From Vicinamibacteria bacterium (GTDB lineage Bacteria > Acidobacteriota > Vicinamibacteria > Vicinamibacterales > UBA8438): 64,000 bases of DNA. A model generated the notes under the pieces. That model saw nothing but the letters and a program-made list of their open reading frames with translations. It did no database searches and was not told the DNA's origin. Within the stretch, counting starts at the first letter, position 1. Each line of letters opens with the position of its first letter. Position numbers and translations under genes: made by a program. Shown here piece by piece: positions 22,404 through 25,010 of the stretch. Location: NCBI GenBank assembly GCA_022820825.1, contig JAJEEU010000017.1, forward strand, positions 17,292 to 81,291, read 5' to 3'.

Positions 22404-23225
22404 ATGGATTTCGGGGGGCCGTGGACGCAAGAAAAGCTGGAGATCCTGGAGCACTATCTCGACGCCTACACGACAGCGCTGAAGAACAAGTCGTTCAAGT
22501 TGTTGTACATCGACGCGTTTGCGGGGACTGGGCAGATCGAAACGCAAGAAAGAGAAACAGCGGAGTTCCTGGCCGGATCTCCAGTGCGAGCCATCGCGGT
22601 CGGTAACAAGCCGTTCGACGAGTTGATCTTCGTTGAGAAGCAAGCTGCGCGCGCTGCGGAGCTGCAGCGGCTTCGGGACAAGCATCCCCACAGGAACATC
22701 AGGATCGAGAACGCCGAAGCAAACGGCTTCCTGCTCAACCTCCGGAAGGATTGGCAGACATGGCGCGGCGTCCTGTTTCTCGATCCGTTTGCAACTGAGG
22801 TGAGATGGTCGACGATACAGGCCATCGAGAGCTACAAGGCCCTCGACACTTGGATTCTATTCCCCGTTTCCGCAATTGCACGGATGCTACCAACATCGAG
22901 GACGCCCGATGACATATCGCGGCAATGGGCACAGCGCTTGACCGACGTATTCGGAGGCGAGAGTTGGCGCGAGTTGTACCGAGAGAACCCGCAGCGAGGC
23001 TTGTTCGGAGATCCCGGCTCGGTCAGAGAGAAAGGCGTCGACGGACTCGTGCGAATCTACAAGAGCAATCTGCAGGAATTGTTCGGTGATCGCTTCCTGG
23101 GAAATTCGAGGCGCTTGACGAGCTCCACGGGGTCTCCACTCTTCGAATTCATGTTCTGTGCTGGTAATCCTCGGGGAATCAACGTAGCACACCGTATCGC
23201 GAGTCACATCCTGGACCGGATGTAG
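22404..23225 (+). CDS. three-Cys-motif partner protein TcmP-like (methyltransferase-fold-like)
   Basis: Start at [19 protein letters not shown] (ATG 22404, GGAGGA 4 nt upstream). Motifs YIDAFAGTG and VLFLDPF. Sits directly upstream of a DUF5131 gene, which is the defining context of TcmP as I recall TIGR04474. Confidence 0.7.
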
Positions 23226-23227
23226 CC

Positions 23228-23983
23228 ATGTCTACGCATTCGAACATCGAGTGGACTGAGACGACGTGGAACCCCGTTACGGGGTGCTCCAAGATCAGCC
23301 AGGGTTGCACGCATTGCTACGCCGAACGGATGGCGATGCGGCTGCAAGCAATGGGAGTAAGCAGGTACCGGAACGGATTCGACGTCGCGGTGCATGAAGA
23401 AGCACTCACGGAGCCACTGCGGTGGAGGCAACCACGGCTCGTGTTCGTCAATTCGATGTCAGATCTGTTTCATCCGTCTGTGCCTGTGCCGTTCATCGAA
23501 GCGGTGTTCGCAATCATGAACCGGGCTGCCCGCCACACCTTTCAAGTACTGACGAAGCGGCCGGAGCGGGTGCAGCTTCTTGGCGATCGGGTCTCTTGGA
23601 CCCCGAACATCTGGCTTGGTGTAAGCATCGAGTCGGAGCGCTGGCTGAGCCGTCGGGCGCTGCTGGTCGACACGGGTGCCGAGACCAAATTTCTCTCACT
23701 TGAACCGTTGCTCGGTCCACTGCCGGATCTGGAGCTGGCCGGTATCGACTGGGTGATCGCCGGGGGAGAATCAGGGCCAGGGGCAAGACCGATGCAGCCT
23801 GCGTGGGTCAGGGATATCAGGAACGCCTGCGTACGAAACGGCGTACCGTTTTTCTTCAAGCAGTGGGGTGGCGTATTCAAGAAGCGGACGGGCCGCGAAC
23901 TGGATGGGCGGACCTGGAATCAAATGCCGGATGGGGTCGCCCGCTCCTCCGTGCCTCCAACCGGAGATGCCACCATTGTCTGA
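23228..23983 (+). CDS. DUF5131 / phage Gp37-Gp68 family three-Cys protein
   Basis: N-terminus [32 protein letters not shown] (C-x6-C-x2-C), then [10 protein letters not shown] and [16 protein letters not shown], the family hallmarks as I know them. Starts 2 nt after the TcmP stop. Confidence 0.85.
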   Translation: [251 protein letters not shown]

Positions 23984-24059
23984 CACGGATGACGCGAACT
24001 GGACTCACTATTCGCCGGGCGCCCGGGTTCCGGTATGGGTTATCGTCTGAACACGAACC

Positions 24060-25010
24060 ATGGCGCGACCTCCGTTCGGCGAACCGGATCCGGATCAGCA
24101 GATCCGCGTTGCCGCGTTGGCAGCCATCGAGAAGTTGTCGCGGCGGTGGTCGGGAAGGGTGCCCTGGGATGCGATCACCGCCGGCTTTCGTGTCGCCGGC
24201 CAGACGGTCTTGTTCGCGAATCGCGCGAAGGGAATCTTCAAGCAGAGACAGATGAGTGCCGCTCTCAGCATCAAGACCGGGGTGCCGCGGCCCGGTCGGC
24301 CAACCTGGTATCGCGATCAGGAAATCGATTCGGCAAGCCTCGACGGCGCTACCGGTCTGCTACGCTACGATCTTGCGCGCGGCGGCCTGAGCGATCCGAC
24401 CAACCGCGCCCTTCAGGATGCATGGCGGCGCGGCGCGCCGCTCATCTACTTCATCGGTGTTGCGCCGGCAGTGTACCGTCCGATCTTTCCGGTCAGGATC
24501 GCCGATTTCAGACCGGCTGCGGGCCACGCGATGCTGGCCACCGATGACTTCGAGATCGTCGAGAGCAAATCGGGCAAGGTGGCGCGAGAAGGGATCGAAG
24601 CATCGTATTCCCTGACAACAACCTACAGTCGGAATCACCAGGCGTGGTTCAGCACGCTCACCAAAGCGGCCTACCAGTGGAGGTGCGCGTTCAGCGGCCT
24701 GCCGGTTCGCGCCCTGCTTGTTGGCGCGCACATCGTCCCCGACGCTGACGGGGGGCCGCCGTCGGTGCGGAACGGAATCTGCATGTCCGCGCTCCACCAC
24801 GTCGCCTTCGATTCGCACTTGATTAGCGTAGACCCCGATTTTCGAGTTCACGTGTCGTCGCGGTTGCAGGAAGAGCAAGACGGACAGTTGCTGGCAGGGC
24901 TCAAGGAACTCGACGGAACGAGCCTCAGGCTTCCGACTGATCGTGATGACTGGCCGCGACGCGAATTCCTGGAACGACGTTTCAGCCGGTTCAGGGCGTC
25001 AGATAGATAG
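24060..25010 (+). CDS. HNH endonuclease with N-terminal putative base-reading (SRA/PUA-like) domain; restriction-type
   Basis: C-terminal WRCAFSGLPVRALLVGAHIVP...VRNGICMSALHHVAFDSHLISVDPDF (HNH_2-type). N-terminal GIFKQ...LSIKT...WYRDQ...LRYDLARGG...NRAL...PLIYFIGV pattern recalls COG3440-like restriction nucleases. The N-domain assignment is tentative. Confidence 0.7.
   Translation: MARPPFGEPDPDQQIRVAALAAIEKLSRRWSGRVPWDAITAGFRVAGQTVLFANRAKGIFKQRQMSAALSIKTGVPRPGRPTWYRDQEIDSASLDGATGLLRYDLARGGLSDPTNRALQDAWRRGAPLIYFIGVAPAVYRPIFPVRIADFRPAAGHAMLATDDFEIVESKSGKVAREGIEASYSLTTTYSRNHQAWFSTLTKAAYQWRCAFSGLPVRALLVGAHIVPDADGGPPSVRNGICMSALHHVAFDSHLISVDPDFRVHVSSRLQEEQDGQLLAGLKELDGTSLRLPTDRDDWPRREFLERRFSRFRASDR

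Follow-up and report, generated by a model that had tools for sequence, protein, structure and literature searches.

The question raised by this locus is whether three adjacent genes act as one system or have been assembled from independent parts. They lie in a 64,000-nt stretch of contig JAJEEU010000017.1 from a member of the Vicinamibacterales (Acidobacteriota). This whole stretch is called the window below, and all coordinates refer to it unless they follow an L-number, which denotes a related locus used for comparison. The genes encode TcmP, a DUF5131 protein (phage Gp37/Gp68 family) and an HNH nuclease. They follow each other on the same strand (Table 1), with gaps of 2 nt (23226-23227) and 76 nt (23984-24059), between sdaA and an SSF transporter gene. 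An earlier note had described this arrangement, which agrees with the coordinates of the open reading frames (ORFs), and had read the three genes as a single modification/restriction cassette. However, the trio is probably not one system. It is fairly likely that the patch consists of two independent modules, the TcmP-DUF5131 pair and the nuclease, brought together in one variable chromosomal hotspot of the Vicinamibacterales between sdaA and SSF. The case for the independence of the two modules is among the most useful outputs of this analysis.

A scan with a TcmP alignment, at one genome per species, detected 187 relatives, of which the best 80 loci were kept. DUF5131 is adjacent to TcmP in all 80: directly downstream and on the same strand in 73, convergent in four and otherwise placed in three. 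An HNH homologue occurs 3' of the pair in three loci, intact in L014 and L016 and as fragments in L015, all from the Vicinamibacterales, the lineage of the window. The pair is found without it in the other 77, so that the three genes of the proposed cassette are not co-conserved. The window locus is syntenic with those of the L014-L016 type (COX1-VTT-sdaA-cargo-SSF), and the cargo of this hotspot exists in several states. Pair and HNH gene occur together in the window, L001, L014 and L016, the pair with a decayed HNH gene in L015, the pair alone in L017 and L067, and the HNH gene alone, after an insertion sequence (IS), in L004-L007, while in L002 other genes separate the pair from the HNH gene. 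The cargo also includes toxin-antitoxin genes, insertion sequences and a TonB receptor. In a cognate restriction-modification (R-M) system the two activities would be co-inherited and the nuclease never found without its modifier. The HNH gene and the pair do not behave in this way. The presence of an intact HNH gene without its supposed protective modifier, as in L004-L007, argues strongly against the idea that the pair shields against the nuclease. Full-length members of the HNH family are numerous (353 matches). In L009, L012/13, L112-L114 and L120-L123 they stand without TcmP, in the company of R-M and toxin-antitoxin genes, integrases and IS elements, and both TcmP and DUF5131 are missing from all 18 metagenome HNH loci.

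TcmP has moreover been replaced independently of its neighbours. The window and L014 share 89.6% nucleotide identity over a 7.2-kb match that extends from COX1 to just past the HNH gene. Sliding identity is mostly 87-97% in sdaA, DUF5131 and HNH but 57-79% over a segment that comprises the upstream intergenic region and almost all of TcmP. Within this segment the conserved first ~90 nt of TcmP remain at 86%. At the amino-acid level TcmP is 73% identical, compared with 95% for DUF5131, 92% for HNH and 91% for sdaA. The syntenic Chloroflexota loci L087 and L091 (8000-8899) show a similar contrast, with 59-72% in TcmP and 87-99% in DUF5131 and most of the flanks. Over 76 gene pairs the identities of TcmP and DUF5131 show only a moderate correlation (Spearman 0.41), and many of these pairs combine DUF5131 values of 0.89-0.95 with TcmP values of 0.67-0.73. 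TcmP alone (in the window, together with the upstream intergenic region) has been exchanged for a divergent allele on at least two occasions, in unrelated lineages. These allele swaps are a new observation. A matched modification-restriction pair would hardly be expected to exchange TcmP beside an HNH gene that is still 92% identical. TcmP may be a specificity or sensor subunit under diversifying selection, as the comparable exchange of hsdS and mod alleles suggests. A discrete hypervariable recognition domain within TcmP was considered and rejected because the divergence is spread over the whole gene.

The assignment of the first gene to TcmP, made in the earlier note, is confirmed by its hidden Markov model (HMM) score: 169.2 bits with TIGR04474 (cut-off 53), over profile positions 1-259 of 263. 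It also matches the PADLOC model PDC-M41A (3e-73, PADLOC-DB v2). The methyltransferase-like, C-x6-C-x2-C and HNH motifs that had been pointed out are all present in the translations of the three genes. In TcmP, motif I (D37-A-F-A-G-x-G) and motif IV (D127-P-F) are invariant among 82 homologues. Its AlphaFold2 (AF2) model (pLDDT 84, pTM 0.84) has its best Foldseek matches with Trm1 (3axs, 1e-6), RlmJ (6qe5, 1.5e-6) and RsmD/YhhF (2fpo), at probability 1.0. There are 158 PDB matches at E<=1e-3, the top ones all methyltransferases. A viral fold library gave the same picture, with generic methyltransferases only, PHROGs returned only 'unknown function', and a PDB sequence search with TcmP gave nothing useful. 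TcmP is therefore predicted from its model to adopt a class I S-adenosylmethionine (SAM)-methyltransferase fold with motifs I and IV, in line with the methyltransferase-like character first proposed for it. This fold assignment is new. Trm1 uses a D-P-F-G motif. Since the best fold matches methylate exocyclic amines of RNA bases, the substrate of TcmP may be DNA or RNA.

The second gene is clearly a DUF5131 member, as had been suggested (PF07505, 328.5 bits against a gathering cut-off of 28.9, 3.4e-98), and matches the PADLOC models PDC-M41B (1e-112) and PDC-M30B (3e-108). Its C20-x6-C27-x2-C30 and GGESG motifs are invariant or nearly so among 81 sequences. The canonical radical SAM motif CX3CX2C is not present, the DUF5131 motif being CX6CX2C, and the score with TIGR04471 ('radical SAM mobile pair protein A') is 63 bits, below the cut-off of 355. 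A PDB search found no relative of DUF5131, even with a 28-sequence profile at E<=10. A natural comparison is provided by the Nostoc plasmid pC052_C (L118 4823-6885). There a distant TcmP (36% identity) is divergent with a CX3CX2C radical SAM protein that replaces DUF5131, and this pair directly adjoins a BREX-1 system. The CX6CX2C motif aligns to the CX3CX2C of this canonical radical SAM partner through a 3-residue insertion, which supports an Fe-S/radical SAM reading of the three cysteines of DUF5131. In RadicalSAM.org, DUF5131 is radical SAM Megacluster-5-2 and spore photoproduct lyase adjoins it at 5-3 (PMC9477430), a placement in line with the metal/Fe-S type foreseen for this protein. As judged from these motifs and groupings, DUF5131 appears to be a radical-SAM-type, Fe-S family member of a non-canonical (CX6CX2C) kind. 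Among the papers searched, no biochemical study of DUF5131 or TcmP was found, which agrees with the earlier description of the pair as lacking a demonstrated biochemical function.

TcmP and DUF5131 constitute a tight, mobile two-gene unit. The census loci belong to the Vicinamibacterales (the closest, at 66-73% identity), Poribacteria, Nitrospirales, Dehalococcoidia, Bryobacterales, Latescibacterota, Binatia, and Alpha- and Gammaproteobacteria. On an Acetobacter plasmid carrying a distant TcmP the gene order is DUF5131 then TcmP. In the Gordonia temperate phage PantheRoc (L115 4001-5733), DUF5131 and a TcmP-like gene are convergent. They are flanked by the integrase/BrnT-toxin region and the immunity repressor, a position where defence genes expressed from prophages are usually found. 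The claim that such a module is missing from current system lists is not upheld. The adjacent window genes match both component HMMs of PDC-M41, so the pair is already a PADLOC candidate. PDC-M41 and the related PDC-M30 are listed as phage defence candidates, untested according to their authors (Payne et al. 2024, bioRxiv 10.1101/2024.01.29.577857). PDC-M41 goes back to genes found within Hma, BREX, DISARM and type I R-M systems, and the supplementary table of the same paper gives FAM_02405>>FAM_00989 for PDC-M41 and FAM_02577>>FAM_00989 for PDC-M30. In S. meliloti the TcmP gene SMa2243 adjoins the Hna defence gene.

The neighbourhoods of the pair also place it among defence genes, as the earlier note had anticipated. 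Genes within 5 kb of the 80 TcmP loci were clustered, with ORFs called mechanically, and the recurrent clusters were annotated. The commonest neighbour is a type III Mod (PADLOC MTase_III, 2e-147), whose cluster is present in 15 loci and immediately upstream (-1) in nine; a type III Res lies downstream of the pair in nine. The complete order Mod-TcmP-DUF5131-Res on one strand is observed in eight loci (L035, L038, L040, L045, L046, L050, L060 and L078, at about 5000-13000 in each), from Poribacteria, Nitrospirales, Alphaproteobacteria and others. This embedding in type III mod/res operons is new. Other recurrent neighbours are GmrSD (5 loci), type IIG/ISP (5) and Csm6 CARF-HEPN (6), and a type I HsdR-like gene, Cas9-Cas1 and PD-T4-4_A are also found near the pair. 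The Mod-pair-Res operon of L038 and that of L060 additionally contain a PD-T4-4_A-like ATPase gene. Among 50,697 phage records, 180 carry DUF5131, almost always without TcmP, and five carry TcmP. The phage neighbours of DUF5131 or of the pair are DNA-metabolism (DNA methyltransferase, polymerase, exonuclease) or lysogeny genes, and the possibility that the pair occurs only in phage morphogenesis modules was rejected on this basis.

The third gene contains an HNH_2 core, as expected from its motif (PF13391, 45 bits against a cut-off of 21, 9e-12). Its catalytic residues are intact, H224, N238, H246, H247 and D251 being invariant in the family. The only PDB sequence matches are weak ones over the HNH part, with TagI (6ghs) and VcaM4I (6yex). 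An assignment to the phosphorothioate-dependent restriction endonucleases was rejected: NF045808 scores 58 bits against a cut-off of 180, matching only at profile positions 157-276 (the HNH part) and leaving the phosphorothioate-binding part unmatched. No Pfam model, SAD_SRA included, matches the N-domain (aa 1-165) in a scan of 63 family members. The AF2 model of the nuclease is of middling quality, with a pLDDT of 61 overall and 70-86 over most of this domain. Foldseek gives a coherent but weak set (E 5e-3 to about 1, TM 0.2-0.45), the best being TagI, the SRA domains of KRYPTONITE/SUVH5/SUVH6, ScoMcrA SBD-SRA, SauUSI and VcaM4I. Hhalign of the HNH family against an approximate sequence of the human UHRF1 SRA gave no match, and the N-domain is for this reason not called SRA. 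Of the base-reading role originally ascribed to the N-domain, what stands is this weak but coherent resemblance to SRA and type IV folds; the Pfam and hhalign sequence tests do not support it. Relatives of the N-domain number ~550 at 50% clustering. In a sample of 70, 48 carry HNH_2, one combines Mrr_N, the N-domain and HNH_2, and one carries Mrr_cat, combinations of the kind seen where type IV restriction enzymes exchange domains. A word-index search restricted to the N-domain yielded nothing beyond truncated HNH relatives, and an exact-protein look-up of the window HNH gave no record. The gene probably encodes a type IV-like nuclease whose reader domain is unannotated and possibly SRA-like, and it is not filed as a member of the SRA-HNH group.

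Several neighbours of this nuclease type are worth recording. It lies beside C5 DNA methyltransferase genes in L123 (1873-7945) and L011 (7160-10247), and in L123 its start overlaps a HhH-GPD glycosylase gene by 4 nt. Such neighbours are awkward for a 5-methylcytosine-reading N-domain and hint at another specificity or a repair-linked role. In L114 two HNH copies (4167-5111 and 7001-7945) lie 2 kb apart, each beside toxin-antitoxin genes (HicB, BrnT).

We put forward tentatively, as a possible rather than a probable reading, that the pair is a self-contained, horizontally mobile radical-SAM system marking or damaging nucleic acid, with TcmP as the exchangeable selector and DUF5131 as the conserved catalyst. 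It would represent an undescribed self/non-self chemistry beside or inside type III R-M and other immune loci. In the favoured two-module explanation, the first module is the translationally coupled TcmP-DUF5131 pair. TcmP, the fast-diversifying and swappable subunit, would bind SAM and select the nucleic-acid target, presumably DNA rather than RNA, and DUF5131 would carry out radical chemistry on the selected target, so as to modify a base or to create a lesion. As a whole, the pair would be a self-sufficient accessory for modification or defence, often nested in type III, other R-M or CRISPR loci. The second module is a stand-alone mobile nuclease composed of the unannotated N-terminal domain and the HNH_2 core, most likely a type IV-like (modification-dependent) restriction enzyme that works independently of the first.

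Several observations weigh against this picture. The chemistry and the substrate of the pair are guesses, and the nearest structural relatives of TcmP are RNA and not DNA methyltransferases. If the pair only modifies, it is without an obvious effector for defence. The HNH gene and the pair could still be co-transcribed, given the 76-nt gap and the negative terminator prediction. In L008/L010 and in L011 (Table 1) the HNH type has a solo DUF5131 gene, without TcmP, at a distance of 2-4 kb, which hints at more than chance, and this proximity may be due to defence-island clustering. One of these solo genes follows a SLFN_AlbA_2/HATPase_c_4 gene and the other lies beyond a BbrUII/HgiDII-type restriction enzyme and a C5 methyltransferase. 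For the N-domain, the resemblance to SRA is weak (best Foldseek E 5e-3) and fails at the sequence level. Finally, the census represents a TcmP subfamily at >=55% identity, mostly from marine or sponge-type metagenome-assembled genomes (MAGs).

The cassette interpretation, in which the pair installs a nucleic-acid modification and the HNH enzyme cuts unmodified DNA or is the matched type IV partner, draws on the common direction, short gaps and low GC of the genes, on the conservation of the trio in four close relatives (window, L001, L014 and L016), on the solo DUF5131 genes just mentioned and on the precedent of Dnd with a downstream wHTH-SAD-HNH (PMC10853773). It is nevertheless very improbable, since the trio is confined to one lineage and to three of the 80 TcmP loci, HNH-only, pair-only and HNH-pseudogene states coexist in the same hotspot, the HNH gene is outside this hotspot always without TcmP and mostly without DUF5131, and the TcmP allele was exchanged while the HNH remained nearly the same. 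It is likewise unlikely, although less so, that the pair is a defence system that does not operate through DNA marks but produces an antiviral small molecule or modified nucleotide, in the manner of viperin, or modifies RNA (tRNA/rRNA or phage RNA). Prokaryotic viperins are radical SAM enzymes in a nuclease-free defence, and neither gene of the pair encodes a nuclease. RNA modification would suit the closest structural matches of TcmP, the tRNA/rRNA methyltransferases Trm1, RlmJ and RsmD, and a radical-SAM-containing system, Ophion, has been validated (bioRxiv 10.1101/2025.09.30.679545). Against this, DUF5131 is grouped with the DNA-acting spore photoproduct lyase in RadicalSAM.org Megacluster-5, the most recurrent neighbours of the pair are DNA methyltransferases and restriction enzymes, and a nucleotide kinase or transferase partner is not recurrent beside it among the neighbour clusters of the 80 loci.

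A comparably small chance is given to a role outside defence, either in DNA repair or as a self-protective (anti-restriction) modification of mobile elements that accumulates in the same hotspots. This would account for the frequency of DUF5131 in phages, almost always TcmP-less and near DNA methyltransferase, polymerase and exonuclease genes, and is consistent with its relationship to a repair enzyme family, with the candidate status of PDC-M41 and with the toxin-antitoxin genes, insertion sequences and TonB receptor that share the hotspot. However, the pair is embedded in type III R-M operons of several phyla, it was detected through guilt-by-embedding in Hma, BREX, DISARM and type I systems, it occupies a lysogeny-module position in a temperate phage, and the rapid turnover of TcmP alleles resembles that of defence specificity genes.

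If the proposed radical nucleic-acid modification by the pair is true, it would be a new enzymology for bacterial immunity and would explain the spread of this gene pair over many phyla, plasmids and temperate phages. The unit of interest for function is the two-gene pair rather than the trio, with TcmP as its likely specificity subunit. The natural TcmP allele swaps provide ready comparison pairs and the type III-embedded versions natural functional contexts. The N-domain of the nuclease (~550 clusters) is fused mainly to HNH_2 and at times to Mrr modules, and may represent a new module for reading DNA.

Table 1. Features of the sdaA-SSF patch and of the related loci, with the evidence for each
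Feature	Coordinates	Strand	Evidence or remark
sdaA-TcmP intergenic region	22271..22403	+	Hairpin and Shine-Dalgarno; 57% identity to the same stretch in L014 (unrelated)
TcmP, predicted class I SAM-methyltransferase fold	22404..23225	+	ORF call; TIGR04474, PDC-M41A, AF2 model and Foldseek, invariant motifs
Segment replaced by divergent allele relative to L014	22295..23191	no strand	Sliding nucleotide identity
DUF5131 (phage Gp37/Gp68 family), putative non-canonical radical-SAM-type	23228..23983	+	ORF call; PF07505, PDC-M41B, three-Cys motif
HNH nuclease gene	24060..25010	+	ORF call
Nuclease N-terminal domain, aa 1-165	24060..24554	+	Outside any Pfam family; weakly SRA-like
HNH_2 nuclease core, aa 209-258	24684..24833	+	PF13391, invariant catalytic residues
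Solo DUF5131 near HNH	L008/L010 9069-9839 and 7655-8425; L011 10502-11281		Two other arrangements

The composition of the patch differs from that of its surroundings, as the earlier note had observed from a hand count (31/60 G+C at 22501-22560) that proved right. The GC of the TcmP, DUF5131 and HNH genes is 0.57, 0.60 and 0.63, with a GC at third codon positions (GC3) of 0.70-0.74, whereas sdaA and SSF have a GC of ~0.70-0.72 and a GC3 of 0.93-0.96, and the window mean is 0.681. These flanking genes are identified by their 91-96% identity to L001/L014 genes with the corresponding Pfam matches. A search for signs of an integrative element found neither direct repeats nor a tRNA gene flanking the patch (22404-25010). 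Upstream of the pair, a GC hairpin (22284-22298) comes after the stop codon of sdaA, and a GGAGG Shine-Dalgarno sequence (22396-22400) stands four bases 5' of the TcmP ATG; an alternative TcmP start is possible at a GTG (22365). No sigma-70-like promoter was found, and no terminator is predicted in the gap between DUF5131 and HNH. The SSF start is probably the ATG at 25192 rather than the TTG at 25099 of the mechanical ORF call.

Further variation is seen downstream. In L014 and L001 a 2.7-kb TonB-dependent receptor gene lies between HNH and SSF, which the window does not have (~25170-25190). An AbiEii-like nucleotidyltransferase toxin gene (26895-27698, - strand; Pfam AbiEii 1.2e-6) and a small upstream partner (27711-28028, - strand) are inserted between SSF and a GSDH-like gene, and the same junction in L014 and L001 is without insert. 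A second low-GC patch (34000-43000, GC 0.58-0.63) contains an ORF (39007-41118, - strand) for a 703-aa N6-adenine DNA methyltransferase of the type I HsdM kind (PDB 7vru, 7e-30). The large ORFs near this HsdM-like gene (35929-38265, - strand, and 41503-42795, + strand) have no PDB match. This patch may be another R-M or defence island.

Comparison with known systems places the two modules close to several of them. The pair is nearest to PDC-M41, whose two models match adjacent and co-directional genes in the window. However, PDC-M41 was defined within Hma, BREX, DISARM and type I systems, while in the window the pair occupies a chromosomal hotspot and has a solitary HNH gene as its neighbour. 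PDC-M30 shares the DUF5131 family FAM_00989 with PDC-M41, but its PDC-M30A is longer (~370 aa) and matches only the N-half of TcmP. In the eight type III R-M operons of related loci the pair has mod on one side and res on the other, all on the same strand, whereas no type III genes adjoin it in the window. TcmP resembles Trm1, RlmJ and RsmD in its fold (E ~1e-6 to the model), its invariant motif I and its D-P-F motif IV. It differs from them in TM-scores of only ~0.45, in identities of 14-18%, in its own C-terminal half and in its obligate pairing with DUF5131; methyl transfer by TcmP is a prediction. DUF5131 shares with the radical SAM superfamily a three-Cys cluster motif, a GGE-type motif, a RadicalSAM.org subgroup and a weak TIGR04471 match, but carries CX6CX2C instead of CX3CX2C and scores far under the TIGR04471 cut-off. 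The nuclease recalls the SRA-HNH type IV enzymes (TagI 6ghs, ScoMcrA 5zmm/5zmn) in its C-terminal HNH_2, its N-terminal beta-rich domain and its top fold matches, and its family is likewise stand-alone and found in defence islands. Unlike them, it has neither a sulfur-binding domain nor a SAD_SRA Pfam match, and its fold scores are weak. A modification operon followed by a reader-HNH nuclease, as proposed for Dnd loci (PMC10853773), is the architecture that the earlier note suggested for the trio, but the window nuclease is not co-conserved with the modification-type pair.

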